A stretch of 64,000 bases of DNA from Methanobacteriota archaeon (GTDB lineage: Archaea > Thermoplasmatota > Thermoplasmata > SG8-5 > DAIRED01), in contig JAZDNO010000005.1 in assembly GCA_043799545.1 (NCBI GenBank), positions 649-64,648 on the forward strand, read 5' to 3'. Below, piece after piece: positions 13,002 through 64,000 of this stretch. The notes below the pieces were generated by a model. The model was not told the origin of the DNA. It searched no databases and was given only the letters and a program-made list of their open reading frames with translations. Made by a program: the position numbers and the translations under genes. Numbering within the stretch: position 1 is the stretch's first letter; each line of letters starts with the position of its first letter.

Positions 13002-13066
13002 CGCACCAGCGAGAGAAAGGTTTTATAGCAATCGCGTATTCGCCACATTGCCAAATCCATTAGAAT

Positions 13067-13138: not shown

Positions 13139-13470
13139 TATCGTTTTTTAACGTTCTTGATTCTAGCGTAATTGCGCGATATTCGAACACTAGACTAATC
13201 CACGTCAATTCTTAGCGATTGGATTAGTCTGTGCCTCAGAGAGGGGCGATGATTGCACACCTGCCTCTCTTCGGTCTGGTCGGGGCTGATTGGAGACCAG
13301 ATTCGAACGAGGACTAACGGTATCTTGACGATGTAAGACTTGGGAGTTAGTCCGAAGTTCGGGCAAGGACCACATTATGGATGCCTTGCCCGAATTGGAT
13401 TAGAAAGGCCATATCTATTTTCTATATCGGGGTTTTTTTTATGTCCATAAGGGAGAGCAAGCTTCATGCC
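13139..13470. repeat. Hairpin-rich intergenic region containing direct and inverted copies of the tRNA-Gln 3' end; possible integration scar, MITE or ncRNA.
   Basis: A 13-nt exact direct repeat of the tRNA 3' part (TCTGGTCGGGGCT at 13124–13136 and 13276–13288). An inverted 13-nt copy of the T-loop region (ACCAGATTCGAAC at 13294–13306). Perfect hairpins include GACTAATCCA…TGGATTAGTC, GGACTAAC…GTTAGTCC and TTCGGGCAAGG…CCTTGCCCGAA. Confidence 0.5.
13140..13152 (+). terminator. Oligo-T tract (CGTTTTTTAACG) immediately 3' of tRNA-Gln copy 1; likely an archaeal terminator.
   Basis: A T6 run lies directly after the tRNA discriminator. Confidence 0.45.
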
Positions 13471-13472
13471 CT

Positions 13473-27485: not shown

Positions 27486-28187
27486 TCAGAATATTACCTC
27501 TTCCGAATCGACTTCCATTCCACCTGGCGCTATCATGAATGGGTGTTTGTAGGGGTCGTGCCTCGTGAATCGCATTTTATAAACGGTCAGCGTCCTCCTG
27601 TACTCCCCCTTCACGTTCTCGTAGCCCAGCAAAATCATCGAGTCAGCAATGAACGGTTCCGCACTTGATCGCGTGGCTCCCCCGGCCGTGGCCTCGGCTA
27701 TGAGCAGCGAAGTGAGTCCGGAGGCCTTCAATCCCCTGCAAAATTTGAAAAGGTCGCGCCTGTATTCCTCGTCTGTCTGGTAGTTCAGAGCCACTGCGGA
27801 TAGCGAGTCCACAACCAGCCGCTCCGCCTTCGAGGTTTTCCTCAGTTGCAGCGCCGCTTCAAGTAGGGTGGAAAAATCTGCCATGTCTTCGGAATTTGCA
27901 TTGTGGATGCCGGAAGCGACTCTGGCGGCCCCCATATCCAGTATTGTAACGCGCCCCTCTTTTTCAAAGTCGGCCAACTTAATGCCGTACCCGGCGCTCG
28001 CCCGAAGGGCATTTTCCCTGCTCTCCTCGAGCGTGATGAGGACCCCCTTCTCCCCCGCGCACAGGTACTGCATGGCGAGAAGGCTCTTCGCGCTTCCGGC
28101 CGGCCCGCAGACGAGGTTCACCGTACCCTCCGGAAAACCTCCGTCAATCAATTCATCTAACCCGGGCACTCCGCTTTTTATGCGCAA
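27486..28187 (-). CDS. KaiC-like/RecA-superfamily ATPase (single domain).
   Basis: Walker A (GPAGSAKS), the KaiC-like GVPGLDELIDGGFPEG N-terminus, and Walker B (RLVVDSLS). Confidence 0.75.
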   Translation of the reverse strand: MRIKSGVPGLDELIDGGFPEGTVNLVCGPAGSAKSLLAMQYLCAGEKGVLITLEESRENALRASAGYGIKLADFEKEGRVTILDMGAARVASGIHNANSEDMADFSTLLEAALQLRKTSKAERLVVDSLSAVALNYQTDEEYRRDLFKFCRGLKASGLTSLLIAEATAGGATRSSAEPFIADSMILLGYENVKGEYRRTLTVYKMRFTRHDPYKHPFMIAPGGMEVDSEEVIF

Positions 28188-28742
28188 TCAATCCCCTCCC
28201 ACGGTCTTTTCTGAAAACTCGTGATCGTAACCTGCGGAGGTCATCAGCCCGATGGTCGCGCGCCTGCCGAGCCGGGCGACCGAGCCAGCTACCAGAGCTG
28301 TCAAAAGGAGGTCGCGCTCCCTTTCTCCAATAGCCTCGTTCTCATTAAGCGCCTTTAATGCCTGGCTTGCATTCGTGTTCAATAATCTGACGAGCGCCTC
28401 CCAATCCGCCCCCAGCACCCCGGCCAGCCGCTCCAAGAAACCGGCCAGCGCTCCTGGGTGGTTGATGATGGATGATGGTTTGCAGCCAGCTAGGTCTATC
28501 TCAATTTTGACATTGGATGCGACTAGCCTGTACTCGAACGCCTTGCGCCTTCCGGCACGAAGGCGCCTTTCCGCGATGCCTGCGCTCGCAAGAGCCGACA
28601 AATGGGCGACGGCCGTGGCTATGTGCAGGCTCAAATCCTCCGCAATTTCGCTCGCGCTTTTCCACTCGCTGGTCGACAGGGCACCCGCGATGCGCAGACC
28701 TCCCTTGCTGCCTAGGGCGTACAATTTTTCAACAGTGCTCAT
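28188..28742 (-). CDS. Winged-helix (ArsR-like) DNA-binding protein.
   Basis: N-terminal wHTH (LYALGSKGGLRIAGALSTSEWKSASEIAEDLSLHIATAVAHLSALASAGIAERR). The stop abuts the KaiC start. Confidence 0.5.
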   Translation of the reverse strand: MSTVEKLYALGSKGGLRIAGALSTSEWKSASEIAEDLSLHIATAVAHLSALASAGIAERRLRAGRRKAFEYRLVASNVKIEIDLAGCKPSSIINHPGALAGFLERLAGVLGADWEALVRLLNTNASQALKALNENEAIGERERDLLLTALVAGSVARLGRRATIGLMTSAGYDHEFSEKTVGGD

Positions 28743-37402: not shown

Positions 37403-38032
37403 TCATTGCCAAAAAAGTGTAACGTACGGGTTCAAGCCGAACCGCAACGTCGTCTGCCTGCCCTTCCCCCCGATTATCACGTAGACCTCCGCGGGATCGC
37501 TCTTAATCACCTTTGGCTGGAGACCCAGGACGGAAAGCTTCGAAAGGGTCCCGTCCAGCAGGCCCTTTCTGCGGTCAAGGTAGGCCTCTCCGGAATTGGA
37601 CAGCAGCTCGGAAGGGTAGTACCTCACGCTCCGCCCGTCGCGCGAAGTTAGGGCCAGCCCAAGCTTTCCGAGGTCCCGCAGAACCCTCGAGACCGATTGC
37701 CTCGAAGAGCCGAGCTTCAGGGCAAGTCCGTCTTGGGCGAGCCCGGGATTGGTAATCACCTCTCTCAGCGCGGCCCTCCTATCCTCATTGGCGAGGAAGG
37801 CGAAAATCTCGAATTCCTCATCCCTCAGCATCCCGACCGGATAATACGCGGCGTGGCCCTTGAAATTGCGCGCCGCCAGCAGTTCGGCCTTGGCGAGCTT
37901 CCTCAGGTGCCATTTAATCGATGCTGGGGACAGCGACATGGCGCTTGCGATTTGAGACCTGATGGAGCATGGCCTGTGCGAAAGGAACGAAAGGACTTCC
38001 GCGTCGTTCTCCGACATGGCAAGCCCGCGCAT
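37403..38032 (-). CDS. Transcriptional regulator with two winged-helix (MarR/ArsR-like) domains.
   Basis: First domain: VLSFLSHRPCSIRSQIASAMSLSPASIKWHLRKLAKAELL. Second domain: LREVITNPGLAQDGLALKLGSSRQSVSRVLRDLGKLGL. Confidence 0.55.
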   Translation of the reverse strand: MRGLAMSENDAEVLSFLSHRPCSIRSQIASAMSLSPASIKWHLRKLAKAELLAARNFKGHAAYYPVGMLRDEEFEIFAFLANEDRRAALREVITNPGLAQDGLALKLGSSRQSVSRVLRDLGKLGLALTSRDGRSVRYYPSELLSNSGEAYLDRRKGLLDGTLSKLSVLGLQPKVIKSDPAEVYVIIGGKGRQTTLRFGLNPYVTLFWQ

Positions 38033-38105
38033 CTGGCTCGGACCGCGCGCTCCGCCCTCTTTCTTCAGCGCTTCAAGCAGGGCCGCCCCGACGCGCTTCG
38101 TGCGC

Positions 38106-38993
38106 TCACCCCGCCTTGTACTCAGCCGCTATGTCTTCCAACAAATCCTCCGGGTCAACGCTCTTAAGGTCCGAATCCCGAACCTCCGCCAGAGCCTTCT
38201 CAATCCTGTCCCGGACCTCCTTGGGAAGCAACGGCGAAATCCTTCCGAGCCCTTCCATGAGCTGGGTGGAAACCCGGTGCTCGTCCCTGACGGGCTCGCC
38301 TCCCCGGGCGACCACGATGCCGAGCCCCTTAATTATGCTGTACGGATGCGACCGCTCGCTGTGCCTGCTGTTCCTGCACTTGACTATCTTGAACCTGCGC
38401 TCGGCGCCTTCGTCCAGCGCCCTGTACCTCAGGTGGATGACGCAATCGGCCAGATACATCGGGATGACCGTCTCGTTTCCGGTCAGGTCGCTCGCCGACC
38501 CGTGCTCCTCCAAGGTCGCCAGTACCGTTCCCACCTTTCGGGTCTCTTTGAGCATGAAACCGATGAGGTCCCGCTGCTCGTATCGGTCTGCGTTCGCCCA
38601 AAGCACGGGCGTGAGCGGGTCGACGACGATTCGGGCGTTCGCCCCCTTCCAATCCTCGACGAAGGAGGGCAGCTCCTTCTTGATGAACGTCGCAAAGTCT
38701 CGCCCAGAGGCGTCTATGAAAACGAGCTGCTCGCGCTCGATGTATTCGAGGATTTCGCCCCACCCCATCTCGATGGCCTCTTTGATTATCTGCTCCTTGT
38801 TCTCGTCGAGGCTCACGAAGATGCCTTCCTGTCCCTCCTCCAGTCCCCTGCGGATGAATTGCGTTGCGAGGGTTGTCTTGCCCGCGCCGGAGGCCCCGAT
38901 GACGACTGTGGTGGAACTCTCGTTGATGCCGCCGTCGATGAGCGCGTTCAGGCCGTAGACTCCGCTTCTTATTTTGCGCATCCGCTTTACCAA
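38106..38993 (-). CDS. KaiC-like/RecA-superfamily ATPase with a C-terminal extension.
   Basis: Walker A (GASGAGKTT), the GVYGLNALIDGGINES N-terminus, Walker B (RIVVDPLT). Confidence 0.75.
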   Translation of the reverse strand: MVKRMRKIRSGVYGLNALIDGGINESSTTVVIGASGAGKTTLATQFIRRGLEEGQEGIFVSLDENKEQIIKEAIEMGWGEILEYIEREQLVFIDASGRDFATFIKKELPSFVEDWKGANARIVVDPLTPVLWANADRYEQRDLIGFMLKETRKVGTVLATLEEHGSASDLTGNETVIPMYLADCVIHLRYRALDEGAERRFKIVKCRNSRHSERSHPYSIIKGLGIVVARGGEPVRDEHRVSTQLMEGLGRISPLLPKEVRDRIEKALAEVRDSDLKSVDPEDLLEDIAAEYKAG

Positions 38994-39038
38994 CGCCTAG
39001 AGCGTATAATAGGCTTTCGACTGGGGGTGCTAGAAACC

Positions 39039-39920
39039 TTAGTGGCCCCTCTCCTGCAAACGCTGCCCAGGCAGCAACTGCTCGACTGCGATGCCTTTCA
39101 TGGCCTCCCCGAGCCCCACGGAGACTTTGACCAGGACCTTCGGGTCGTCGTAGTGCGTGACAGCCTCGACGATAGCTTTCGCCCGTTTCTTCGGGTCGTT
39201 GGACTTGAAGATGCCCGAACCGACAAAGACTCCGTCGCTCCCGAGCTGCATCATCAACGCGGCATCGGCGGGGGTCGCAATGCCGCCGGCCGCGAAGTTC
39301 ACAACTGGCAGCCTCTGAAGTTTAGCGATTTCCTTCACAAGGTCAGCAGGAGCTTCAATCTTCCGAGCGAAGAGCTCAAGCTCCTTCCCATCCTTGCCTT
39401 TCAGCTCCCTGATTGCGCCCATTATCGCGTGCTGGTGCCTGACGGCCTCGACCACGTCGCCTGTTCCAGCCTCGCCCTTCGTGCGAATCATGGCGGCGCC
39501 TTCGGCTATCCTACGGAGCGCCTCGCCTAGGTCTCGCGCCCCGCAAACGAACGGGACTGTGAACTTGGACTTGTCAACATGATGGAACGGATCCGCAATA
39601 GTCAAGACTTCCGACTCGTCTATCATGTCAACGCCCATCGATTCCAGAATCTGGGCCTCGGCGAAGTGGCCGATGCGGACTTTCGCCATCACGGGAATGG
39701 TCACGGTGTCCATTATCTCCTGGATTTTCCTCGGGTCCGCCATTCTGGCGACTCCGCCAGCTGCGCGAATGTCCGCCGGAACGCGCTCCAGGGCCATGAC
39801 CGCCACCGCTCCAGCCTTCTCAGCAATCTCCGCCTGCTTTGCGTCGGTGACGTCCATAATTACGCCCCCCTTCTGCATCTTGGCGAAGCCACGCTTGAGC
39901 AGCTCTGTCCCGTGGCGCAT
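39039..39920 (-). CDS. pdxS: Pyridoxal 5'-phosphate synthase lyase subunit.
   Basis: Colinear with B. subtilis PdxS: [84 protein letters not shown]. Start taken at the Met that gives a ~293-aa product. Confidence 0.85.
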
Positions 39921-44663: not shown

Positions 44664-45914
44664 ATGGAGTCTGAAATCTCAAGGAAGGTCGCGCAGATCA
44701 TGGAGCGCGAGATGGGCTCCGCCGGCGCCTCAATCATCGAGCGCCAGTGCGAGCAGTTAGGCCTGGACAAGGAGAACCTCCGCCCCAACGACCTGCCGCG
44801 GCTCGCTGGACGCCTCTCGGAGCTTATGCGCGTGATGGGGGGCCACCAGAAGGCTAACCGCATCTATCAGGAGATACAGAAGCTCGCCGACCTCGAAAGG
44901 ATCGCCGAGCTTGCGCCAACCGACGATTCCAGGCTCGCGCTTTTCGAGGACCTCGCGAAGGGGAGCATGTTTTCGGGGGACTGGCAAAAGGCGATATTCT
45001 ATTTCAAGAAGCTCCTCCATAACGCCGAGGTGGGGAAGAATCGCTCAGGCATGGCGAAGTATCTGATATGGATAGGTTTCGTCCACAAGGAGAAGAGCTC
45101 GCTTGACCAGGCAATGACGTTCTATGAGCGGGCGATGCGCTTCGCGGAGTCGGTCGGAGACGACGACCAGCTCTCGCACTGCCACTACCAGATGGGGGAC
45201 GTCCTGTGGTACACGGGAGAACTGGACAGGGCACTGGAATCGTACCAAAAGGCGCTGAACCTCGCCACGAGCATCAAGTTCAAAGGGGCGGCGCACGTGG
45301 GCATCGGGAACATGCTGATGAACAAGCACGATTTTCCGGCGGCGACCGGCCACTACCGCGAAGCGCTCAAGCTCCTCGAAGGGACGGACGACTACCTCGA
45401 CCAGGCGCGGGCATACAACAACATCGGCGACGTCCACCTCCAGCTCAAGGAATGGGACTCGGCCGTCGAGTGCTTCGACGAGAGCGCCGAGCTGGCGGAG
45501 AAGGGCGGGTGGCTGAACGTGCGCGCTTTCACCCAGTTCAATACGGCGGATGCGCTCGTCCACAAGGGCGACTACGGCAAGGCCAAGGAAATGCTTGAAA
45601 AAAGCATGGAGATATTGCTGCTGATAGACAGCAAAAGCGGGTTGGCCGGGGCGCACCACGTATACGCGAAGCTGTTCATGGCTTTGAAGGACTACCCGAA
45701 AGTGGTCGAACACTACAAGGCGGCAATCGAAATTTACGAGCTGGCAAAAATCCCGTTCTACAGGGCTCAGTGCAATTACGAACTGGGCAAAGCCTACATC
45801 GAGATGGGCGACAGGGAGAGGGCCCAGGGGCACTTCCACGAAGCCACCAGGATTTACGGGGAACTCAATCTTGACACGATGGTAAAAAAGGCGATGGATG
45901 CGGCGGGGCGCTAG
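44664..45914 (+). CDS. TPR-repeat protein with a conserved N-terminal domain.
   Basis: Multiple 34-aa TPR units (W/Y…A…Y…A patterns). N-terminal ~80 aa is shared with the convergent paralog. Confidence 0.6.
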   Translation: MESEISRKVAQIMEREMGSAGASIIERQCEQLGLDKENLRPNDLPRLAGRLSELMRVMGGHQKANRIYQEIQKLADLERIAELAPTDDSRLALFEDLAKGSMFSGDWQKAIFYFKKLLHNAEVGKNRSGMAKYLIWIGFVHKEKSSLDQAMTFYERAMRFAESVGDDDQLSHCHYQMGDVLWYTGELDRALESYQKALNLATSIKFKGAAHVGIGNMLMNKHDFPAATGHYREALKLLEGTDDYLDQARAYNNIGDVHLQLKEWDSAVECFDESAELAEKGGWLNVRAFTQFNTADALVHKGDYGKAKEMLEKSMEILLLIDSKSGLAGAHHVYAKLFMALKDYPKVVEHYKAAIEIYELAKIPFYRAQCNYELGKAYIEMGDRERAQGHFHEATRIYGELNLDTMVKKAMDAAGR

Positions 45915-47233
45915 GCAACGGCGCTCAGGGTTCGCTCGGCTTTCTCCAGGTATTTCTTAGCCCCTATGGTCTTGAACGTTTCCACCGCGCGTCCCAATAA
46001 CTCCCTCCCCCTCTTCTTCTCTCCCTTGTTGAGGAGCATCTCGCCCCATTCCATGGCGAGGTGGGCGTTGTTGAACGGCGAGTTGATTTTTTTCAGGACA
46101 TCCTCGGATTGCCTGAAGCACTTCTCTGAGTTCTCCCAGTCCTTCTTCAGCCTGTGGGCGAGGCCGAGGTCCCTGTATGCCGCCGACATTCCCACCAAAT
46201 CGTTCAACTGAAGGAGGATTTCGAGAGACTCGGTGCAGCGCTTAATCGTCTCGTCCGGCTTGCCCAGGCGAGCGTACGCTTCGCCGGAGTTGAACAGGCT
46301 CCACGCAATCATCATCCTATGGTTGATGGTCCCGGCGGCCTTCTTGCACTGGTCGAAGCACGTTATGGCGCTCTTCCAGTCATCCTTCTGAAGGTAGATG
46401 TCCCCGAGGTTGTTGAACGCCCTCGAAAGCTGCTGCTGGTCCTTGACGGCCTCCAGAAGCTCGATGGCGCTCCTGTAATGCTCAATCGCCTTGTCCAGGT
46501 TGCCAGTGTCGCTATATACGAGCCCGAATTCTATGTGGATGACCCCGATGGTCGCCTTGTCCCGCGACTCCTCGGCAACCTTCAGCGCCATCCCCAGATG
46601 GCTCTCGGCCTCCGAATACTCGCCCCTGCGCCAATAGACGTAGCCAAGCCCGGCCAGCGCGTCCGCGATTCCGATGGGGTGCCCGACCTTTCTCGAGAGC
46701 GCTATCCCGTGGTTGAAGTGGTCTATCGCCTCGTCCCAGTTGCTCCTGCGCTTGCAGATGTGCCCGATGTTGCGGTGCGCCTCGGCTACTTTCAGGAGGT
46801 CGCCGTGCGCCTTCCCGAGCTTGATGACCTTGGAATAATATTCTAGCGAATCGTCCCAGTCGCCGATGGTGTAGCAGATGGTCCCCAGCTTCGCATATGC
46901 GTCCAGCTCCTTTCGCTCGCGCAGGGGATCTCCGGGCTTCGAACTCAACGCCTCCAGCTCGGCCAGTATTTTGAACTTCAGAATCTCCTTGCCGATTTTG
47001 CTCGCCCTGTCGTCTCCCATCGTCGGCCTGAGCGCCCTTATCATCCGCTGGGAAAGGACAACCAGGTCTCCGGGCTTCACATCCTCCGGCTTGATGTTCA
47101 GCTCGGCGCATTGTTTTTTGTACACCGACATCCCGAGCTCCCCCATTTCCTGGTTGAGCATGCGCTGGATGGAAAGCCCGATGTGTTTACCGAGCAACTT
47201 GTCGACCATATTGCCCCTCTCCACTATCATCAT
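45911..47233 (-). CDS. TPR-repeat protein, paralog of 44664–45914.
   Basis: TPR units throughout. N-terminal domain (…EMGELGMSVYKKQCAELNIKPEDVKPGDL…) is homologous to the neighbour (…EMGSAGASIIERQCEQLGLDKENLRPNDL…). Confidence 0.6.
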   Translation of the reverse strand: MMIVERGNMVDKLLGKHIGLSIQRMLNQEMGELGMSVYKKQCAELNIKPEDVKPGDLVVLSQRMIRALRPTMGDDRASKIGKEILKFKILAELEALSSKPGDPLRERKELDAYAKLGTICYTIGDWDDSLEYYSKVIKLGKAHGDLLKVAEAHRNIGHICKRRSNWDEAIDHFNHGIALSRKVGHPIGIADALAGLGYVYWRRGEYSEAESHLGMALKVAEESRDKATIGVIHIEFGLVYSDTGNLDKAIEHYRSAIELLEAVKDQQQLSRAFNNLGDIYLQKDDWKSAITCFDQCKKAAGTINHRMMIAWSLFNSGEAYARLGKPDETIKRCTESLEILLQLNDLVGMSAAYRDLGLAHRLKKDWENSEKCFRQSEDVLKKINSPFNNAHLAMEWGEMLLNKGEKKRGRELLGRAVETFKTIGAKKYLEKAERTLSAVA

Positions 47234-48792: not shown

Positions 48793-49485
48793 TTACCTCA
48801 GGCCAGGCTGGACCGCGAAGCCCTCCGGCCCTATCTCGACGAGCTGCCTGCCGGTCACGTGCCTGGTTCCGCGCATCTTCAGGACTTCCAGGAATTTCCG
48901 CCTGACCTTGTCCTCCTCCGGATACGACAGCATGAGGACCCCGTCGACCATGTACGCTTCCATCTTCTTCGATATGTCCTCGTAGTTCATCTCGGCAGTG
49001 ATGAGCGTGATGCAGTCGTAAGCCTTGAGCTTCGCGAAGAGCTCGTGCATGAACTCGCGGGTCTCGCCGCGCCAGTGGAGCATATCTGTTATCGGAGTTA
49101 TCGGGTCTATGACGAGCCTGTCCGGCATGTGCCTCTCCACCAGCTCCGTGATTTTCCCCAATATGGCGCTCGGGTTGGATATGAGCTCCTTTCCCAGGTC
49201 CACGAAGATGACCTTCTCGCTCTCCACGAGCGCCTGATCGTAGAACACGAATCCCGAGAGGAACTTCTGCACGACCCACTGCGGCTCGGATATCGCGGTG
49301 ATGTAGAGCGCCTTCTCCCCGTTCTTCGCGGCCGAGAACATGCTCTGGACGCAGAGGGTGGTCTTCCCGGTGCCCGGCTCTCCCGCGACCAGCAGCGCGC
49401 AGGGGCTCGGCACGCCCCCGACTATCATGTCGTCCAGCCCAGGCACGCCGAGGGACTTCCTTTTAATGGTCCGCTCCGAGCTCAT
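48793..49485 (-). CDS. KaiC-like/RecA-superfamily ATPase.
   Basis: Walker A (GEPGTGKTT), GVPGLDDMIVGGVP, Walker B (RLVIDPIT). Confidence 0.75.
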   Translation of the reverse strand: MSSERTIKRKSLGVPGLDDMIVGGVPSPCALLVAGEPGTGKTTLCVQSMFSAAKNGEKALYITAISEPQWVVQKFLSGFVFYDQALVESEKVIFVDLGKELISNPSAILGKITELVERHMPDRLVIDPITPITDMLHWRGETREFMHELFAKLKAYDCITLITAEMNYEDISKKMEAYMVDGVLMLSYPEEDKVRRKFLEVLKMRGTRHVTGRQLVEIGPEGFAVQPGLR

Positions 49486-52030: not shown

Positions 52031-53110
52031 ATGGCGGCCATGCGTCCGATATTGTATTACAGCCCCGCCATGGGGCGCGTCGACTTCGGCGCGGGCCATC
52101 CGTTCAGGGGCTCCCGTTTCGACCAATTCGTCAAGCTGCTTCAGGCCAACGGGCTCGAAAAGGACCTTGACGTTCGCCAGCCATTGACAGCGACGGATGC
52201 GGACCTTGCCCTTGTGCACACCCCGGAGTACGTCGCGCACGTCCGAGAGGTCGAGGGTTACGAGGGCGCGCTGTCCATCGACACCCCAGTCCCCAGAGGG
52301 ATGACGGACGCTGTCAAGTTCATCGTCGGCGGTGCGCTGGCGGGGGCTGGCTCCCTCGCCAAGGGCGAGTCCGAGCTGGCGATGACGTTCGGCGGTTTCC
52401 ATCACGCCGGCGTTTCGAACGGGGAGGGCTTTTGCGTCTTCAACGATGTGGCGATAGCGGCCCGCGCCCTCATCCAGCGCCATGAGATGAAGCGCGTTCT
52501 CGTAATCGACACGGACGCGCATCAGGGCAACGGCACCATGGATATTTTCTGGGAGGACCCGCGCGTTCTTTTCATATCTATACACCAGGACCCGCGAACT
52601 GTTTATCCCGGTCGGGGCTTCGCGAGCGAAATCGGCGCAGGCGAGGGCAGGGGATTCACAATAAACATCCCCATGCCGCGGTTCTCGGGCAACGCCCAGT
52701 GGGCGCATGCTCTGGACGAAATCTTCGTGCCGGTGTGCGCCGAGTTCAAGCCCGAGGCCATAATCCGAAACGGCGGCTCGGACCCGTTCTACGCGGACGA
52801 GCTGACGGAGCTCGGGCTCGATTTCGACGGTTTGGCGGAGGTCGGGCGAATAGTGCGCTCCGCCTCCGACAACGGTCCCCGGAGGCTCCTGGACCTGATG
52901 GTCAGCGGCTACGGCGATTTCGTGCCGTACGGTTGGCTGGCGTTGTTCGCGGGAGTCACGGGCATGCAGGTTGATTACAGCAAATACGCTCGATTGGTTT
53001 ACCCGATGCCGAGCCGCGTCCCAGAGGCGACGCTGGAGAGGCAGACGGACGCGGTGGTTGCAGAGGTTAGGCGCAACCTTGCGGAATTCTGGCCGTGCCT
53101 GCGCAAGTGA
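52031..53110 (+). CDS. Histone deacetylase/acetoin-utilization (AcuC-like) family deacetylase.
   Basis: Arginase/deacetylase-fold motifs GGFHHAG, FCVFNDVAIA, VIDTDAHQGNGT. Confidence 0.75.
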   Translation: MAAMRPILYYSPAMGRVDFGAGHPFRGSRFDQFVKLLQANGLEKDLDVRQPLTATDADLALVHTPEYVAHVREVEGYEGALSIDTPVPRGMTDAVKFIVGGALAGAGSLAKGESELAMTFGGFHHAGVSNGEGFCVFNDVAIAARALIQRHEMKRVLVIDTDAHQGNGTMDIFWEDPRVLFISIHQDPRTVYPGRGFASEIGAGEGRGFTINIPMPRFSGNAQWAHALDEIFVPVCAEFKPEAIIRNGGSDPFYADELTELGLDFDGLAEVGRIVRSASDNGPRRLLDLMVSGYGDFVPYGWLALFAGVTGMQVDYSKYARLVYPMPSRVPEATLERQTDAVVAEVRRNLAEFWPCLRK

Positions 53111-56422: not shown

Positions 56423-57505
56423 ATGGCATCCTCCGCGACGAGGCGCGTCGCTCTAGTTCACAATCTCAACCACGTTCTGCATCGTTCGGAGAGCAGCAGC
56501 CCCGAGAATCCGGAGCGCGTCACGAGGATTATCCAGTACCTGAAGGCGAGGACGCCATTGCTCACCGACGGGCCGTGCAGCCTGATTGTCGATTTCCCGC
56601 CCGCCTCCGAGGAGGACCTCCTGCGCGTCCACGACAAAAGCTATCTCGATTTCCTCCGGCGCACCGCCCAGCGCGGCAGCACCTTCCTCGGGGACAGCAC
56701 TTACATCTCTCCGCAGACGTTCAACGTGTCGGCCTCGGCCGCAGGGGGCGCGATGGAGGCGCTGCGCGTGGTCGCGACTGCGGAGTATGATGCCAGCTTT
56801 GCGATAATCAGGCCGCCCGGCCACCATGCATCGATGGACCGCTTCAGCGGGTACTGCCTAATCAACAACGCGGCGGTGGCCATACGGTATGTCCAGGCCA
56901 TGCTGGGAGTGCAGAAAGTCATGGTCGTGGACTGGGACGCGCACGCGGGCAACGGAACCATGCGGGTCTTTTACGAAGACCCGTCGGTTCTTCTGGTCTC
57001 ACTGCACAGGGACCCCAACGAGCATTACCCTCACGACGGTTTCGGTCACCAGATAGGGAGGGGGCCTGGTCGCGGCTACAACGTGAACGTCGAGATGCCG
57101 GAGGCCGCGGGCGACGCGGAATACGAGCTGGTGTACGACGAGCTGGTGTCCCCGCTGGCCAAGTCATACCTCCCCGATTTGGTAGTAGGCTTGGTGGGCT
57201 TCGACGCTCATTACAAGGACGGGCAATCGGGGCTGAACATGACCAGCCAAGGTTATTTCAACATGGTTGAGCACCTCATAGGCATCAACGGAAGGCTGGC
57301 GCTCATCCTGGAGGGTGGATACTCGACGGCTAACCCGACAATAGCGCACGCCGTCATCTCGGCGCTGGCCGGATTGCCGGCTCCGTACGAGGAAAACATC
57401 GATGTGCTGGCCGCCGCCGTCACCCGGAGGAAGAAGACCAGGGCCATACTCGAAGACAACATCGCGGATCTGAAGGAGCTTCTTTCCGAGTTCCACAGCA
57501 TGTGA
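56423..57505 (+). CDS. Histone deacetylase-family (class II/acetylpolyamine amidohydrolase-like) deacetylase.
   Basis: RPPGHHA, VVDWDAHAGNGT, GGYS motifs. Start taken at MASSATRR; the longer upstream frame runs through the translin gene in another frame and looks spurious. Confidence 0.75.
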   Translation: MASSATRRVALVHNLNHVLHRSESSSPENPERVTRIIQYLKARTPLLTDGPCSLIVDFPPASEEDLLRVHDKSYLDFLRRTAQRGSTFLGDSTYISPQTFNVSASAAGGAMEALRVVATAEYDASFAIIRPPGHHASMDRFSGYCLINNAAVAIRYVQAMLGVQKVMVVDWDAHAGNGTMRVFYEDPSVLLVSLHRDPNEHYPHDGFGHQIGRGPGRGYNVNVEMPEAAGDAEYELVYDELVSPLAKSYLPDLVVGLVGFDAHYKDGQSGLNMTSQGYFNMVEHLIGINGRLALILEGGYSTANPTIAHAVISALAGLPAPYEENIDVLAAAVTRRKKTRAILEDNIADLKELLSEFHSM

Positions 57506-57539: not shown

Positions 57540-57851
57540 GTGGTTCAGGCTACTTCGGTGAGCATACAGAAGATTTTCGTCCACAGGGACGAGCATCTGG
57601 TGGGCATAGAGGTAAACGAAGGCCAGCGAGTCAAGTTCTACAGTTACACCTACTACGTCAACATGAGGGATTCCTGGCAACCGTGCGTGCGGTGGGACAA
57701 CGCCGAGCAGCAGCCTCACGTGGACAGATACGATGAGAACGGCACTCTCATCGAGCAGCAGCACTGCCGGGAGAAGAATTTCAAAGAGGTGCTGAAGCTC
57801 GTGAAGATATTCCGGCGGAACCTGGCGGCCATGAATTTGGCGGAGTTGTGA
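57540..57851 (+). CDS. Hypothetical small protein.
   Basis: A 103-aa ORF, 33 nt upstream of the next gene; no recognisable motifs. Confidence 0.3.
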   Translation: MVQATSVSIQKIFVHRDEHLVGIEVNEGQRVKFYSYTYYVNMRDSWQPCVRWDNAEQQPHVDRYDENGTLIEQQHCREKNFKEVLKLVKIFRRNLAAMNLAEL

Positions 57852-57884: not shown

Positions 57885-58328
57885 ATGCGCGTGGAACTGA
57901 TAAAACACTATACGACGGAAGACGTGGAATCTGAGCTGAGGCGGCTCGCCGACTCCTACGTCACCCTCGATTCGCTTTCCCAGAAGGTGTCTGTAACCAA
58001 ATGTAACAACCCGAAGCTTCAGGACGAACTGATGCTGTGGCGCGCTCTCCAAATACCTCATGTCGAGGTGCGAACGTCGGTCGCGTTCGAGGGTTCGGAA
58101 AAGGTTGCGAACATCACGCCTGCCAGGATAGACCTTCTCGAGGCCATCCGGCGCACGAGGCCCCATTCCGTCAGGGAGCTGGCATTATCTGTAAAAAGGA
58201 ATTACAAAAACGTCTACGACGACATCCAGGCTCTAAGCGATGTCGGTCTGGTCGAATTGGTGGTCAAAGGCCGAAAAAGCCGTCCCGTCTGCACGGCGGA
58301 CGAGATAAAATTCAGTTTGGAAAGCTAA
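57885..58328 (+). CDS. Winged-helix DNA-binding protein.
   Basis: C-terminal wHTH ARIDLLEAIRRTRPHSVRELALSVKRNYKNVYDDIQALSDVGLVEL. Confidence 0.4.
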   Translation: MRVELIKHYTTEDVESELRRLADSYVTLDSLSQKVSVTKCNNPKLQDELMLWRALQIPHVEVRTSVAFEGSEKVANITPARIDLLEAIRRTRPHSVRELALSVKRNYKNVYDDIQALSDVGLVELVVKGRKSRPVCTADEIKFSLES

Positions 58329-58396
58329 TTTACTTTCCACACCATAACTTTCTCATTTACGCATCTGGATTGATATGTTTACTTTCCACACCATAA
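58329..58396. promoter_or_regulatory. Intergenic 19-nt direct repeat (TTTACTTTCCACACCATAA, two copies 49 nt apart) upstream of the AT-rich gene at 58446.
   Basis: Exact 19-mer at 58329–58347 and 58378–58396, in an AT-rich spacer directly after the stop of the wHTH gene. Confidence 0.4.
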
Positions 58397-58445
58397 TTAA
58401 AATCTCAGAAATATATTTAAACAAGTACAACTATTAACCCATGCT

Positions 58446-58970
58446 ATGAAAGCGCAAAAATATGAAGATGTGCAATTCATAATAAGTCAAGATGGGGACG
58501 GAGAGCCCAACCTCAACTTGGTTTGGAAAGAAGGCGGGCTGTTCCTCTCTTTGTCTGGACTATTCATTTCTGACGGAGACACCTGGTACGAGCTGCCAGT
58601 GAAGGACTTGGTCAATGTGAACATCATCAACGAGGAGCCTTTGCAGCTCAGATTTAAAATCCCCGCGCTGGACGTCGTGGTTACGGGGAAGCGGGCCGAG
58701 AGGCTGCTGGCACTGCGGCATTTCCTGCTTCCATACATCAAGCGCGAGAAAGACGGCAGCGGGATGAAGGGGCTAATCAAATTTTGGGCGGTCGGAATCT
58801 ACGATTTGGACATACTCAGCAGGCTGATGTCTGAGGAAGAGTCCGTCGTCATCAACATGATAAACAAGGCCAAAAAAGACGGCCTGGTGTCGGAAGATGG
58901 GAGGGTGACCGAGAAGGGCCTCTCCCTTCTGAGTGCGAGCGAGCGCAAAATCCTGAAGGGGTCGCTGTAA
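58446..58970 (+). CDS. Hypothetical protein in an AT-richer segment.
   Basis: A 174-aa ORF. Local GC is clearly lower (58330–58980) than in flanking genes. Confidence 0.35.
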   Translation: MKAQKYEDVQFIISQDGDGEPNLNLVWKEGGLFLSLSGLFISDGDTWYELPVKDLVNVNIINEEPLQLRFKIPALDVVVTGKRAERLLALRHFLLPYIKREKDGSGMKGLIKFWAVGIYDLDILSRLMSEEESVVINMINKAKKDGLVSEDGRVTEKGLSLLSASERKILKGSL

Positions 58971-58972: not shown

Positions 58973-59857
58973 ATGCAGAACGGACCAAACTTCGGAAGCT
59001 TCGCCGAAGCCGTCACGACGCTCGGCAAGCTCACGAAGATGGAGAGCGCCATCCAGGCCGCGATAAAAAATTCCCAGGTCCCTCCGAGGGAGACGAGGAA
59101 GCTCCTCAAGTGCTCGAAGCCGGCCGAAGCAGGCAACACTCCGATTTTCCAGTTCATGCGGGAGCTGTTCCGGAGGATGGATCTGGGGGAGTTGGAGATA
59201 GCATCGCTGGACATTTTCAAGATGAGCTTCCGCGTAAGGGACTGCCCCGTCTGCAGGCTCTACCCCAACGTCAAAGACAAGCACACTTGCTACGTGACCA
59301 CGGACGCCCTTGCGCAGTTCTTCAACAAGGACCTCTCGATACCCTCGACCTCAGAGGAGGTATTGTGCAAGAACAACGGCGACGACGTCTGCGAATTCAT
59401 AGTGTCGATGCAGCCCCTCGCCGTTTACCAGCTCGCGCTCGATGCCTGCGACAGGGACATCATCGGCCACCTGCCGTCCATGAAAGAAACCGCCGCACTA
59501 TCAAAGGCCGTGGACATATCGGAGGACGAGGCCACGTACCGCCTCGATGCCCTGAGGCGCTACCACATCCTCGACGCTGGGAACCACCTCACAGAGATAG
59601 GCGAAACCTACCAGAAGTTCGGCCAGAGCTTCAAACTCCCCGACGAGGACTTTCCGCCGCCGTGGAAGGACATGTCCGAGATATCCGAATCGATATCCGC
59701 GTCCGTGTCGTTCGCCGAGGCCTTCACCGAGGCCGCGGAGACCGAGCCGATATTCGACGTGAAGCGCGAGGACATCGTCAACCTCGCCGAAAAGGCCAAG
59801 AGCTCGAAGAGCTTCGCGGAGTTGATTTCCAAGAACATCTCGAAGGAGGAAGAATAA
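58973..59857 (+). CDS. V4R-domain-containing protein with an acidic C-terminal tail.
   Basis: CPVCRLYPNVKDKHTCYVTTDALAQFF…VLCKNNGDDVCEFIV parallels the Cys spacing of the V4R protein at 49482–49925. Confidence 0.45.
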   Translation: MQNGPNFGSFAEAVTTLGKLTKMESAIQAAIKNSQVPPRETRKLLKCSKPAEAGNTPIFQFMRELFRRMDLGELEIASLDIFKMSFRVRDCPVCRLYPNVKDKHTCYVTTDALAQFFNKDLSIPSTSEEVLCKNNGDDVCEFIVSMQPLAVYQLALDACDRDIIGHLPSMKETAALSKAVDISEDEATYRLDALRRYHILDAGNHLTEIGETYQKFGQSFKLPDEDFPPPWKDMSEISESISASVSFAEAFTEAAETEPIFDVKREDIVNLAEKAKSSKSFAELISKNISKEEE

Positions 59858-59870
59858 CGGAGGGAATGGC

Positions 59871-60752
59871 ATGGCCACGGAGAGGATAAAGACGGGAATA
59901 TTCGGCCTCGACCAGCTGATCGAGGGCGGCGTGAGGGACAATACCGCTGTAGTCATCGTAGGCTCGAGCGGTACGGGAAAGACCACATTCGCGATGCAGT
60001 TCCTGATGCATGGAATTGACAACGGCGAGCAGGGGCTCTACGTGACGATGGAAGAGTCGCCCGAGCAGATAATGAAAGAGGCGGAGATGATGGGCTGGGA
60101 CATGAAGAAGCACTACGAGAAGAGCCTTTTCTTCATCCACCTCAAGGGGAAGAACTTCAAGAAGATGATCGAGGAGCAGCTCCCCAACCTGGTCAAGGCG
60201 CGTAGCGACTACGACATCAGGACGCGCGTCGTCATCGACCCGATGACCCCCGTAATCTGGGCATCGGAGGACAAGCTCGAGCAGCGCGAGCTCATAGGCA
60301 AGCTGTTCTACACCCTGAAGGAACTGGGTGTCGTGATGGCCACGGTCGAGGAGCACTCGAAGCCAGGCGAGATAATAGGCGAGGACGTCCTGCTGCCAAT
60401 ATACCTCTCGGACGGCGTCATCGACCTCGAATACTACCCAATCGGCGGCGCGTTCAACCGCACTCTTAAGATAATCAAGATGAGGGGAACGAAACACGGC
60501 GAGGGAGTTTATCCGTACATCTTCGCCAGGGGCGCGGGAGTCATAGTCCGCTCGTCTCCGAGCGAGGCCGGAACGACCGCTCCGGGGAAGAGCTTCGACC
60601 AGGTCTTCGACGAGGCGATAAAGACTGCTGAATTCATCAAGGCTCCGCCGCACGTCATCGACCGGCTGCAGAAGATGAAGAAGGGCTGGAACTACGACTA
60701 CTCGCCGGAGGAAGCGCTCCAGATAATCTTCGACTCGTACGGGCTGAAGTGA
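59871..60752 (+). CDS. KaiC-like/RecA-superfamily ATPase.
   Basis: Walker A (GSSGTGKTT), GIFGLDQLIEGGV, Walker B (RVVIDPMT). Confidence 0.75.
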   Translation: MATERIKTGIFGLDQLIEGGVRDNTAVVIVGSSGTGKTTFAMQFLMHGIDNGEQGLYVTMEESPEQIMKEAEMMGWDMKKHYEKSLFFIHLKGKNFKKMIEEQLPNLVKARSDYDIRTRVVIDPMTPVIWASEDKLEQRELIGKLFYTLKELGVVMATVEEHSKPGEIIGEDVLLPIYLSDGVIDLEYYPIGGAFNRTLKIIKMRGTKHGEGVYPYIFARGAGVIVRSSPSEAGTTAPGKSFDQVFDEAIKTAEFIKAPPHVIDRLQKMKKGWNYDYSPEEALQIIFDSYGLK

Positions 60753-60763
60753 GGAGGTAGGAG

Positions 60764-61555
60764 ATGGAGACGAGGAAAAAGATAGACAAGACCCTCGACG
60801 CCGAGAACGCGATGCTCCTGAAGCACCTGCTGGACATGGAGCTACGCAGGCTCAGGGAGGACAATGGGATTGACATAGTCCTCTTCATAGGCGTCGACGG
60901 CCGAACCTTCGCCTCAAACATACCGAACGTCTTGTCCGCGCCCCAGTTTCGCCTGCTCAACCTCATCAAGGGGAACCTGCCGTACATCTGCGGCCAACTG
61001 TACGCGGAGAACTTGAAGTTCAGCATCCAGCAATACAAGCACAGCACCGTGATAATCACCGGCGTCGGGGACAACGCCTTCCTCGCGTCCTTAATCGCGA
61101 AGGAGATAGACCTCACGAACGTCCAGGGGCTCGTCAAGAACCTGCTCCGCAGCAGCACGGTCCTGAGGCACGTATTCGAGCTGAGGCCGTTGACGGCCGT
61201 GGCGATGCAGGGTTACGACCCGGAGGTCGTAGACGAGCTGAACAAGCTCAGCCGCCTGCTGTTCGTGGAGAAGTTCGAGGACACCCGTGGCTTCAAGCGC
61301 AACCAGGAGCTCCTGGCCGACTTCAAGAAGAAGATTGGAAGCGTCGTGGGCGTGGGGAACGTCGAGGAGGTCGTGACGCTGACCTTCAACGAGCTCGGGA
61401 CGAACTTCGCCTACATGACCAACGAGCAATGGATGGCGTTCCTGAAGATGGCGATAGACCAGCACATCCGCAAGTTGAGGGGGGACCTGGTAGCGGACGA
61501 GTGCGCGAATACATGGATACCAGAGCTGGAGCGCAAGCTTAAATCGTTCGTGTGA
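60764..61555 (+). CDS. KaiC-associated protein, possibly roadblock/LC7-like or a DUF835 analog.
   Basis: A 263-aa ORF. The N-terminal segment GIDIVLFIGVDGRTFAS resembles roadblock/MglB-type strands. Its position after KaiC mirrors the DUF835 gene in the other module. Confidence 0.3.
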   Translation: METRKKIDKTLDAENAMLLKHLLDMELRRLREDNGIDIVLFIGVDGRTFASNIPNVLSAPQFRLLNLIKGNLPYICGQLYAENLKFSIQQYKHSTVIITGVGDNAFLASLIAKEIDLTNVQGLVKNLLRSSTVLRHVFELRPLTAVAMQGYDPEVVDELNKLSRLLFVEKFEDTRGFKRNQELLADFKKKIGSVVGVGNVEEVVTLTFNELGTNFAYMTNEQWMAFLKMAIDQHIRKLRGDLVADECANTWIPELERKLKSFV

Positions 61556-61562
61556 GGTCCAG

Positions 61563-63887
61563 ATGAGCAAGAAGAAGCCCAATCGAGGCGCGAAGCGGAA
61601 GGCCAAGGCGGAAGTGGTGCAAAGAACAGCGGTCGAGCCATCAGCGACGCCGAAGCCCAAGGCGGCCATGCGTTTGGCCTGCTCCAACTGCGGCAAGACG
61701 GTCAAGGACCAGCGCACCCTCAAGATACACCAAAGCAATTGCAAGGCGGTCCGGCAAAAAGGGGAAGCGGAACGCACCAAGCCGGACCCCATGCTCGCCG
61801 CGCTCATAGACCTGAAGGACGCGATGGCTTCCGAGCGCACGGAGATGCTCAAGCTGGTCGCCGAGAGGGACGCGATTTTCAAGGAGCAGATGTCGGCGAA
61901 GGCGCCGGCGGCGGTGGAAGACGAAAAGCCCGCGCCTCCAAGGGTGGAGCCCGCGATGGCAGCACCACAGAGACAGTCTTCCCCCCACGGAATGGACATG
62001 GGCTCCTATTACGAGAGGCCCGAGCCGTGGATGGAGCAGGCTGGAGCTAGGCAATATTACAGGCAGTATCCGCCGCCGCCATCGCCGGAACCGCCGCCCC
62101 TTTCGCAGGAAGACATCAGGGCGCTCGTGAAAGGCGAGGTTCAGGCGGCTGTCGAAGGGATTGCGGGCTCGGCGGGGAAAAACCTCTCGGAGGACGAGGT
62201 GGCCGCGATTGCTCGAAAAGTGACGGAGGCGGCACTGGCCGGTGTTCCGGAATCCGGCGCCAGCACCGAGGAGGTGGGCTCTCTGGCGAAATCCCTCGAC
62301 GCGAAGCTTGCGGCAGTCGAGCGGCGCATTTCGGAGATGGACCAGCGCATGACCCAGCTCGCGGTGGAGCGGCTGGACCCGTCCAAGTTCCTGAGGTTCG
62401 GGAAGGACATCGAGCGCCTGGACTGGAAGGTCGAGGCGCTGATGGACGAGGTCGGGTTCGGCGACAGCCTCGACGTTTCCAAGATACCGTCGAACATCCT
62501 CGAGATTGTCTACCAGGCCACCCTGGAAGACGTGGTGCGCGAGCTCGGCAAGACTCGCAGCGCCCAGGAGGTCGGCACGATAATCGAGGACACGCTGGAG
62601 GAGGTCAGGAAGAACACCAGCGGGAGCGAGCTCTTCAGGTACAACGGCAGGAGGATACTGACGGAGAATTTGGCCAGGTCAATCGACCACGGGTTGATTT
62701 CCGCGAAGCAGATACAGACGACCTACGCCGAACTTCTCAACACGCTGCTCGCGAGCGTGCCAGCATACAAGCCCAAGAACTTCAGGGCGATGATAAAGAT
62801 AAAGAGCCAGGAATACGCAGTCGACAGGGTCACCCACCTTCTGGGCCGCGCCGAGAATTCAGACAAGATAATCGACAACATGGGACAGATGATAGCCGCA
62901 TTCTCGGCCCAGAGCAACGCCCGCTTCAACCAGTTCTCGGCCAGGCTGGACGAGGTCGCGGGGCCGATGCTGGAGCGCAAGGTCGACGCGTCGCAGTTCG
63001 AGGAGGCGCGCCTGGCGATAAACGAGGTCAGGCTCTCCGTGGCGGAGCTGGCAAGGGAGAGCAGCCGCCTTCTGGCAAAGCTCGAGCTGGGCTCTGTGGA
63101 AGTGCAGCACGACGCGCCTGCCGAGCCCCGTGCAGAGGCCGACGGCGCCGGGCCGTCCCCGGCAATCGAGGTAACCGAAGGGGAGAAGCTCGTGATGAGC
63201 ATGCTCGCCGATGGCGACCTAAGCGTGAGCGCGTTGAGGAAGCGCGCCGAATCATTCCTGTCGCCCGAGGACGTCAAGGCCGCGCTGGAAGGCCTGCACA
63301 CAAAAGGTCTAGTCGAATCGAAGAAATGGAAGAAAGGCAAGAGGCTTTCCCTGGTCAGCCCTGCCCAGGAGCGGGAGGGAGACGGACCTTCGGGCGTGCA
63401 GGAGCCAGCCTCCTCCGAAGGAGCGCCTGACGAGGTCGTCTACGCGCCCGAGGCAGACCAGGGGCGTACGTCAGAGCCCGCCGAAGCTGGAGCGGAGGGG
63501 CCCGACCCTTCCGGGCCCGAGTCTCGGGGCCAGGAACCTGTGGCGGCGCCCGAAGCGGCGGAAGCGGATGCTGCGAACGAGGGTGCCGCGGGAGCAGGCC
63601 TTTCGGAACAGCCGGAGGAAACCGGGCCCGAGGAGGAGAAACCAGAGCCGCCCGCCAAGCCCGTGGAGCTGACGCAGGTGCAGAAGCGCGTCCTGGAGGC
63701 GATAGGCGAGGGGGCGACGATGCCGTCGCTCCGGAGCGCGCTGGACGACTTGAAGTACACGGAGATACTGGTATCCGTGCGCGTGCTCATAGACTGCGGC
63801 CTAGTCACCGCAGAGAGCCACGGGCGCGGCACAACGTACATGAGGGTCAAAGGAGCCAATAGAGAGGAGGTGAAAAACGATGCTTGA
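61563..63887 (+). CDS. Large (774 aa) protein: N-terminal zinc-finger-like motif, long coiled coil, acidic P/E/A-rich linker, two winged-helix domains.
   Basis: CSNCGKTVKDQRTLKIHQSNC (C2-HC-like). Extended heptad regions. Internal wHTH (LVMSMLADGDLSVSALRKRAESFLSPEDVKAALEGLHTKGLV). C-terminal wHTH (VQKRVLEAIGEGATMPSLRSALDDLKYTEILVSVRVLIDCGLV). Confidence 0.45.
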   Translation: MSKKKPNRGAKRKAKAEVVQRTAVEPSATPKPKAAMRLACSNCGKTVKDQRTLKIHQSNCKAVRQKGEAERTKPDPMLAALIDLKDAMASERTEMLKLVAERDAIFKEQMSAKAPAAVEDEKPAPPRVEPAMAAPQRQSSPHGMDMGSYYERPEPWMEQAGARQYYRQYPPPPSPEPPPLSQEDIRALVKGEVQAAVEGIAGSAGKNLSEDEVAAIARKVTEAALAGVPESGASTEEVGSLAKSLDAKLAAVERRISEMDQRMTQLAVERLDPSKFLRFGKDIERLDWKVEALMDEVGFGDSLDVSKIPSNILEIVYQATLEDVVRELGKTRSAQEVGTIIEDTLEEVRKNTSGSELFRYNGRRILTENLARSIDHGLISAKQIQTTYAELLNTLLASVPAYKPKNFRAMIKIKSQEYAVDRVTHLLGRAENSDKIIDNMGQMIAAFSAQSNARFNQFSARLDEVAGPMLERKVDASQFEEARLAINEVRLSVAELARESSRLLAKLELGSVEVQHDAPAEPRAEADGAGPSPAIEVTEGEKLVMSMLADGDLSVSALRKRAESFLSPEDVKAALEGLHTKGLVESKKWKKGKRLSLVSPAQEREGDGPSGVQEPASSEGAPDEVVYAPEADQGRTSEPAEAGAEGPDPSGPESRGQEPVAAPEAAEADAANEGAAGAGLSEQPEETGPEEEKPEPPAKPVELTQVQKRVLEAIGEGATMPSLRSALDDLKYTEILVSVRVLIDCGLVTAESHGRGTTYMRVKGANREEVKNDA

Positions 63888-64000
63888 CGTATCGCTGGTA
63901 TCGCTCATCCAGGACATGAGCGAAAAGGCCGGCGTAGAGGGAACAATACAGTATTGGGCCAGGGTAGGTGAAAGCCTCGCGAAAAGGATGGGAAAGGAAG
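63881..64000 (+). CDS. Hypothetical protein, 5' fragment truncated by the window end.
   Basis: An ATG overlaps the stop of the preceding gene; the reading frame stays open to the window edge (MLDVSLVSLIQDMSEKAGVEG…). Confidence 0.3.

Follow-up and report, generated by a model that had tools for sequence, protein, structure and literature searches.

A KaiC-containing gene module of uncultured Thermoplasmatota: a probable operon and its proposed role as a regulatory switch

With which proteins does an archaeal KaiC-like ATPase work, and to what end? To our knowledge, very few archaeal KaiC-like ATPases have a defined partner set or output. The question is raised by a 64,000-nucleotide (nt) stretch of contig JAZDNO010000005.1 (assembly GCA_043799545.1; hereafter the window) from an archaeon of the Thermoplasmatota. 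Close to its 3' end, a gene for a KaiC-like ATPase (g2) stands between genes for a V4R protein (g1) and a Roadblock-fold protein (g3), followed by that for a protein of 774 amino acids (aa) (g4). An earlier note on this DNA described a cassette of these four genes. The sequence comparisons reported herein are best explained by a larger unit, in which g0, V4R, KaiC, Roadblock, the g4 scaffold, g5, g6, and a GNAT acetyltransferase (g7) form one operon that uncultured Thermoplasmatota inherit as a whole. We propose, with moderate confidence, that this module is a KaiC-centred regulatory switch. Its function is inferred, and the module is best read as a lineage-specific variant of a wider archaeal theme, that of KaiC signalling hubs.

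Extent and conservation of the operon

The four open reading frames (ORFs) of the cassette were all recovered as the earlier note had drawn them, on the plus strand: g1 (58973..59857; 294 aa; PF02830), g2 (59871..60752; 293 aa; PF06745), g3 (60764..61555; 263 aa; Roadblock/LC7 fold by AlphaFold2 [AF2] modelling and Foldseek), and g4 (61563..63887; 774 aa; characterised by an alignment, profile matches to the PDB, and an AF2 model of its core). However, the unit does not end with them; g0 lies on the 5' side, and g5, g6, and the GNAT gene on the 3' side. The first gene of the operon is g0 (58446..58970, plus strand; 174 aa), and the transcription unit runs from 58446 to beyond the window end at 64000. 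Only the 5' end of g5, which encodes a 208-aa orphan protein and continues beyond the window, was present (63880..64000, plus strand). Its first 40 residues are those of the gene at 13063-13689 of a related locus, L001. The remainder of g5 and the genes behind it, namely, its paralogue g6 (204 aa) and then g7, were read in the relatives L001, L003, and L005. The order in relatives is g0, V4R, KaiC, Roadblock, scaffold, g5 (208-210 aa), g6 (203-204 aa), and g7 (185-195 aa).

The genes are tightly spaced. The gap between g0 and g1 is 2 nt, those at the g1/g2, g2/g3, and g3/g4 junctions are 13, 11, and 7 nt, respectively, and the start of g5 at 63880 overlaps the stop codon of g4 within ATGCTTGA. 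GGAGG-type ribosome-binding sites precede the internal genes, and none precedes g0.

As indicated by a conserved footprint of promoter and repeats, the transcription unit starts with g0. The spacer on the 5' side of this gene is 117 nt long and contains two copies of a perfect 19-nt, operator-like direct repeat, TTTACTTTCCACACCATAA (58329..58347 and 58378..58396, both on the plus strand), at a spacing of 49 nt. These are followed by a BRE/TATA-like (B recognition element and TATA box) putative promoter element, GAAATATATTTAAAC (58408..58422, plus strand), which is unique in the window and ends 23 nt 5' of the g0 ATG, a start codon without a Shine-Dalgarno sequence. A GAAA plus TATA pattern was found in 42 out of 48 orthologous upstream regions versus 26 out of 2000 controls. 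Similarly, the motif T[TA]A[CT]-N5-9-[AC]CATA occurred twice, 44-49 bp apart (mode 47), in 36 of the 48 distinct g0-upstream regions of relatives, and such a pair was detected in 6 of 2000 random windows. The repeat motif was counted with a variable-gap regular expression (N5-9), the real gap being N7. The stricter motif TTTAC-N5-9-ACCATA was present nowhere else in the 64-kb window. As judged from its conservation, this phylogenetic footprint is that of a putative promoter with a paired operator-like site. The gene that precedes it (57885..58328, plus strand) encodes a winged helix-turn-helix (wHTH) protein of the HVO_A0114 family (PF25212, E=7.4e-21), occupies the same position in 42 loci, and is a separate unit 5' of the operon promoter. 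Since copy 1 of the repeat begins directly after its stop codon, this wHTH protein is a candidate regulator of the repeats.

Among species-representative genomes, 77 loci were identified in a scan, all in uncultured Thermoplasmatota. They span Thermoplasmata, SG8-5/Proteinoplasmatales, DHVE2/Aciduliprofundum, Saliniplasma, and metagenome-assembled genomes (MAGs) labelled Methanomassiliicoccales. The gene order was also kept in two metagenome relatives, while the flanks differ between loci. Components were counted over the 82 loci that carry g3, in which many misses are contig ends. A KaiC gene adjoins g3 in all 82, and we rejected chance juxtaposition on this basis. The g4 core was present in 68 of these loci, V4R in 67, g5 and g6 in 66 each, g7 in 59, and g0 in 49. 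The order was retained even in a distant variant, L086 (KaiC 59% and g3 39% identical), which also has GNAT and HDAC genes. In four MAGs with complete chromosomes, the module occurs once per genome.

Conservation is uneven within the module. Between L001 and L003, g5 is 91% and KaiC 85% identical, followed by g6 (73%), g7 (63%), g3 (57%), V4R (55%), g0 (50%), and g4 (34% overall). The neighbouring HypD, HDAC, and Translin genes are 55, 53, and 50% identical, respectively. The values of 85-91% for g5 and KaiC, against approximately 50-55% for the neighbours, suggest an important and constrained function.

Proteins of the module

The RecA superfamily includes the KaiC-like proteins, and members of the KaiC family are typically hexameric. 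Judged by its motifs, g2 is a single-domain KaiC-like ATPase of this superfamily with all catalytic motifs intact. It matched PF06745 with an E-value of 1.4e-49 (169 bits; cut-off 26.6) and the CI domains of KaiC in the PDB with E~1e-29. Aligned to KaiC CI, it has a Walker A motif (GSSGTGKTT, aa 31-39), MEES (aa 60-63, within VTMEES, with the catalytic glutamate pair E61/E62), a Walker B motif (VVIDP, aa 120-124), and MRGTKH (aa 204-209). G31, G36, K37, E61, E62, and R205 were invariant in orthologues where aligned. The 293 residues comprise one KaiC domain rather than a CI+CII tandem, with a conserved C-terminal extension of approximately 65 aa (mean column identity of 0.67 over aa 251-293). 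The extension is shared with the closest KaiC paralogue of g2 in the window, that at 38106-38993 (39% identity, E=7e-61).

The g1 protein contains a V4R domain (aa ~59-144), a probable wHTH domain (aa ~152-215), and a tail with short SFAE(A/L) motifs. Its match to PF02830 was marginal (32.9 bits; cut-off 31), and its best profile match in the PDB was the V4R protein MJ1460 (E=0.089). C106, E129, C132, and C140 were invariant in all 65 orthologues; a CPVC pair was not invariant among them. The zinc ligands of DmpR are C151/E172/C177/C185 (PMC7264223), and the redox-sensitive cysteines of MaMsvR are C206/C232/C240 (PMC3729527). The offsets between the three cysteines of g1, 26 and 8, are those of C151/C177/C185 in DmpR and C206/C232/C240 in MaMsvR. 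The V4R domain of g1 thus shares these three cysteines with DmpR (a V4R sensor like MopR and PoxR), in which they coordinate zinc, and with MaMsvR, one of the MsvR redox-sensing transcription factors of methanogens, in which they act in redox switching; we regard the Cys/Glu/Cys/Cys set as a putative metal or redox site. Similar to MsvR, g1 carries a probable helix-turn-helix (HTH) and a V4R domain in one polypeptide. However, the order is reversed: MsvR has an N-terminal HTH and a C-terminal V4R domain, whereas V4R comes first in g1. The wHTH assignment is weakly supported (ArsR/Lrp HTH, E of 0.5-1; CARF-HTH, 0.003). The NCBIfam model of MsvR (NF053755) yielded 34.7 bits against a cut-off of 220, with the V4R part alone aligning. 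Furthermore, unlike MsvR, a stand-alone regulator, g1 is encoded inside a KaiC operon and has the SFAE motifs, at least three of which were found in 45 of the 65 orthologues. These motifs may serve as docking peptides. In g1 itself, they are located at aa 9-13, 246-250, and 280-284, and the two C-terminal copies contain invariant residues.

The earlier note had called g3 roadblock-like, which was correct for its N-terminal half. No Pfam or NCBIfam family matched g3, including Pfam Robl_LC7. An AF2 model built with 52 homologues (predicted local distance difference test [pLDDT] 84.5) shows an a-b-b-a-b-b-b-a domain at aa 9-138 (pLDDT ~90) and a C-terminal domain of five helices (aa 153-262) without a family match. 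Foldseek, run against the PDB, placed MglB or Asgard Roadblock proteins in the first 33 positions, and the other significant matches listed were also of the roadblock type (MglC, Rag/LAMTOR domains). The best E-value was 4e-6, and the target-normalised template modelling score was 0.64-0.70. On the strength of the model and these matches, we assign the N-terminal half to the Roadblock/LC7 fold. A profile search of the PDB placed an Asgard Robl_LC7 protein first (E=0.18), and some JGI records label g3 homologues as COG2018 Roadblock/LC7/MglB. The family comprises approximately 120 clusters of 257-270 aa, with every named member being from a Thermoplasmatota MAG. Therefore, g3 resembles MglB and other Roadblock/LC7 regulators of NTPases in the fold of aa 9-138, and differs from MglB in lacking a family match at the sequence level and in its additional five-helix domain. 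In contrast to MglA/MglB, the NTPase next to g3 is a RecA-type ATPase, not an MglA-type GTPase. Neither the operon nor its flanks contained a Ras-like small GTPase in the window, L001, L003, or L005.

The features ascribed to g4 in the earlier note, namely, a zinc-finger-like motif, heptad regions, an acidic P/E/A linker, and two winged helices, were borne out by the sequence motif, a heptad score, and PDB profiles. The protein begins with a basic segment that carries the C2HC/C2H2-like finger motif (aa 40-60). Heptad helices and a core (aa ~285-430) come next, and two wHTH domains (aa ~530-600 and ~705-765) then enclose the acidic linker (aa 600-700). The finger pattern, C40-x2-C43-x12-H56-x3-C60, is kept in homologues having the N-terminal extension; the basic N terminus with the finger was present in about half of 27 aligned homologues. 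It scored 15.2 bits with Pfam C2H2 (cut-off 25.2) and matched Sal-like fingers in the PDB in a profile search (E=1.8e-4). Heptad-like segments, defined by a crude score above the 99th percentile of shuffles, are at aa 77-111, 230-278, 412-450, and 470-516, and coiled-coil proteins of the PDB were matched at an E-value of about 1e-3 (profile search). E, A, P, and G account for 70% of the linker, the net charge of which is -21; linkers are acidic in the clade of the window and lysine-rich in other clades. In profile searches of the PDB, the first wHTH domain matched AdcR/MarR (7.9e-5) and ArsR (5.8e-4) proteins, and the second matched S25e (4.2e-4) and also the C-terminal domain of CheF. Precomputed matches to PF01978 and PF03965 exist for g4 homologues.

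The alignment of the 27 homologues revealed one strongly conserved block, at aa ~285-430, with 34 invariant columns, which include SGSELF and KxKNFRAMIKIKSQEYAVD; the lysines K403, K405, K412, and K414 of this block are invariant, and the remainder of the protein is variable. Since the conserved block is the core alone, the part of g4 under selection is an orphan domain, which was absent from the earlier note. AF2 modelled the core as a compact helical domain with a b-hairpin flanked by long helices (pLDDT 89-96). Foldseek found no match for it in the PDB (best E=1.9), nor was there a Pfam match. A search of 1.84 billion representative proteins yielded 126 relatives. The suggestion of the earlier note that g4 may act as a DNA-binding scaffold is plausible.

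The most conserved member of the module is g5, which is 67-97% identical across Thermoplasmatota orders and 77-92% identical in most relatives. g5 and g6 are paralogous (E=1e-23; hhalign, 100%). Neither has a relative in Pfam or the PDB; the best PDB profile match, Alba 2, was not significant (E=0.068). We also considered both as V4R-like, prompted by cysteine motifs, and rejected this candidate because the hhalign probability was below 1% and no Pfam or PDB match was obtained. g7 (L001 14337-14924) belongs to the GNAT family by profile, with matches to PH1933 (6e-4), Naa50, and AcuA. At the other end of the operon, g0 is found 5' of V4R in 49 loci. It has a C-terminal wHTH-like region and weakly matched PF24409, wHTH-PRTase_assc (E=6.8e-4, below the cut-off). 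The fold of its N-terminal domain was not matched, and its profile yielded only weak wHTH hints against the PDB.

Upstream of the module, an HDAC-family deacetylase gene (56423..57505, plus strand; PF00850, E=1.2e-81) is the local representative of a recurrent neighbour. An HDAC-family gene is near the module in 29 loci, mostly directly upstream on the same strand. In L086, the HDAC and GNAT genes flank the module at 1-3053 and 9771-10532. The recurrence of HDAC and GNAT genes on either side, also in this distant variant, may indicate a connection with reversible lysine acetylation. AcuA and AcuC of Bacillus form a protein-acetylation switch consisting of a GNAT and an HDAC-family protein. The present case is similar in that g7 has weak profile similarity to AcuA and an HDAC-family gene recurs across the module from it. 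However, the GNAT and HDAC genes are not adjacent, and they are linked to the KaiC module by their neighbourhood. A second HDAC-family gene is present in the window at 52031-53110 (plus strand). Between the first HDAC gene and the HVO_A0114-family wHTH gene is a gene for a small DUF7718/TumE-like protein (57540..57851, plus strand; PF24839, E=5.8e-8; 40 loci). It forms a conserved pair with the wHTH gene directly upstream of the module in 40-42 loci.

Proposed function and its alternatives

Makarova, Galperin, and Koonin (mBio, 2017; cited in PMC5847659 and PMC4858521) reportedly described archaeal KaiC-like ATPases as signal transduction hubs, and such ATPases have been proposed as the main signalling hubs of archaea. 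As in these hubs, a single-domain KaiC protein, g2, shares its operon with partners of the sensor and HTH types, and one genome has several KaiC paralogues that differ in their partner sets (four in the window). The module differs from them in the partners themselves, which are a V4R-wHTH protein, a Roadblock protein with an added helical domain, the orphan core of g4, and g5/g6; no KaiB, MEDS, or DUF835 partner is present in the g0-g7 operon. The KaiC hub with sensor and HTH partners is a published theme. In the searchable literature, we found no description of this partner set, of the three orphan families, or of the operator pair.

We envision the switch as follows. As in MsvR and DmpR, the V4R domain of g1 would use its metal site to sense a small molecule or the redox state, and it would pass the signal to the KaiC ATPase g2, the ATP-driven core. 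The Roadblock domain of g3 may read or tune the nucleotide or phosphorylation state of KaiC, a role that KaiB or MglB has elsewhere. The core and coiled coils of g4 would hold the complex together, and its wHTH and finger domains would contact DNA, providing a nucleic-acid-binding output. Transcriptional feedback may be exerted by one of the five wHTH proteins of the locus through binding to the repeats, and the GNAT and HDAC-family enzymes may add an acetylation layer, either as an input or as an output. The Roadblock family is generally implicated in the regulation of NTPases (cited in PMC3149612). Here, the Roadblock-fold protein is paired not with a GTPase but with a RecA-type ATPase.

The locus offers a sharply defined module conserved throughout a phylum, with V4R as a recognisable input domain whose putative metal site is intact, a catalytically intact ATPase, and a conserved cis-element that may be used for feedback tests. 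Its hosts are a large group of uncultured archaea of groundwater, sediment, and marine habitats; identical proteins are present in Hainich groundwater. Three of its families (g5/g6, the g4 core, and the C-terminal domain of g3) have no known relatives.

Several points weigh against a regulatory switch. These three families were not assignable to any activity by Pfam, PDB, and fold searches. wHTH domains may also mediate contacts between proteins. Three loci (L035, L049, and L053) lack g4, with g5 directly following g3, and the scaffold is therefore dispensable in some lineages. Moreover, the conservation of g5 and KaiC, far above that of the neighbours, resembles the pattern of core cellular machinery more than that of an accessory sensor. 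Finally, all organisms that carry the module are uncultured MAGs.

Some of these points fit a machine associated with DNA or chromatin, in which a RecA/RadA-type ATPase works with finger and wHTH proteins, and the GNAT and HDAC enzymes modify a chromatin or nucleoid protein. We consider this explanation, the main rival, unlikely, but worth weighing. KaiC belongs to the same superfamily as RecA, and g2 weakly matches RadA, RadB, and DnaB models; however, its match to KaiC (1.4e-49) is much better than those to RadA/RadB (1e-5 to 1e-9). The locus encodes five wHTH-bearing proteins and a putative zinc finger, and HDAC, GNAT, and Translin genes recur in the neighbourhood, but no nuclease, helicase, or SMC-like partner is present at the locus. 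The identity of g5 and KaiC is at the level of housekeeping genes (85-91% versus 50-55% for the neighbours). Although the best PDB match of g5/g6 was the Alba 2 protein mentioned above, that non-significant match is at noise level. A V4R sensor and a Roadblock protein are typical of regulation.

A different machine would retain these two proteins as regulators. The module would then not be a transcriptional sensor but an unrecognised piece of core cellular machinery in Thermoplasmatota; V4R (Bet3-like) and Roadblock (longin-like) would regulate a RecA-type ATPase that acts on a heterodimer of the slowly evolving g5 and g6, held on the g4 scaffold, the fold of which has no match in the PDB. This is a bold proposal, and we hold it to be quite improbable. 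If it were true, the module would be a prokaryotic complex that pairs both fold types of the TRAPP core with an NTPase, possibly coupled to lysine acetylation.

The same two folds would be read in yet another manner if Roadblock and V4R formed an MglA/MglB-like or TRAPP-like complex on an NTPase and controlled polarity or membrane events. TRAPP cores combine Bet3-type and longin-type subunits, and V4R is a prokaryotic relative of TRAPPC3/Bet3 (PMC10933270, PMC2253512). The best structural matches of g3 are, moreover, MglB and Asgard Roadblock proteins. However, a TRAPP-like assembly does not follow from the co-encoding of two folds. In the loci examined, no small GTPase is present in or beside the operon, and the sole NTPase is KaiC. 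Furthermore, no operon member had a membrane-associated domain in a Pfam scan, which did not include a dedicated prediction of transmembrane or lipid-binding segments. We judge such a complex very unlikely. V4R and Roadblock are naturally encoded together here, which is relevant to the origin of TRAPP-type assemblies.

Circadian KaiABC systems combine a tandem CI+CII KaiC with KaiB, a thioredoxin-like protein, and KaiA. The similarity of g2 to the CI domain of cyanobacterial KaiC is strong (E~1e-29) and may point to a timing oscillator of the Kai type. However, g2 lacks the CI+CII tandem and has no counterpart of the CII phosphosites, and neither KaiA nor KaiB was matched among the operon members or their neighbours in the window, L001, L003, or L005. 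We give an oscillator hardly any credence. An anti-virus defence island or a mobile element carrying a KaiC-like ATPase is the least credible explanation. In its favour, the upstream DUF7718/TumE-like and wHTH pair resembles a toxin-antitoxin pair, and KaiC weakly matches PADLOC mad8 (1.3e-5). Against it, no specific PADLOC system was detected (only generic P-loop or wHTH matches, with E-values of at least 1.3e-5), each of the four complete-chromosome MAGs has a single copy, component identities fall together, as expected for vertical descent, and the GC content across 58-64 kb (0.54-0.63) is within or just above the window range of 0.54-0.63.

Other KaiC genes in the window

In agreement with the earlier note, the window contains four KaiC-like ATPases with four different partner sets: g2 (59871-60752, plus strand) and three genes on the minus strand at 38106-38993, 48793-49485, and 27486-28187. 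The idea of a family of KaiC switches wired to different outputs is reasonable because these four KaiC-like genes have different partners.

The gene at 48793-49485 has V4R and DUF835 partners. Their cassette (49901-48324, minus strand) resembles the g0-g7 operon in its compactness and in the order of V4R followed by KaiC, and differs in having no scaffold, g5/g6, or GNAT. The earlier note had considered g1-g3 as a second, diverged copy of it. We rejected this duplication because identity between the two KaiC proteins is only 28%, the V4R proteins can hardly be aligned (E=0.04), and the third genes belong to different, unrelated families. In the 48-kb cassette, that gene, also thought to be roadblock-like, proved to encode a protein of the DUF835 family (PF05763; E=1.2e-28), which the earlier note had named as an alternative for g3; hhalign gave a probability of 0.3% for its relationship to g3.

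The paralogue at 38106-38993 is partnered by a double-wHTH protein (37403-38032, minus strand; 209 aa), the two wHTH domains of which are of the MarR/HTH_24 type; the two genes represent a minimal pair of KaiC and wHTH. In naive ORF calls, this KaiC gene is hidden by an opposite-strand ORF of 522 aa (37962-39530), which is spurious. The KaiC-like gene at 27486-28187 is partnered by an ArsR-like HTH gene (28188-28742), and both are flanked by giant ORFs at 22562-27484 and 28843-37341 (minus strand; 1640 and 2832 aa, respectively). Two convergent genes for tetratricopeptide-repeat proteins, at 44664-45914 (plus strand) and 45911-47233 (minus strand) and encoding 416 and 440 aa, respectively, have an M3 peptidase gene on one side and the V4R-KaiC-DUF835 cassette on the other.

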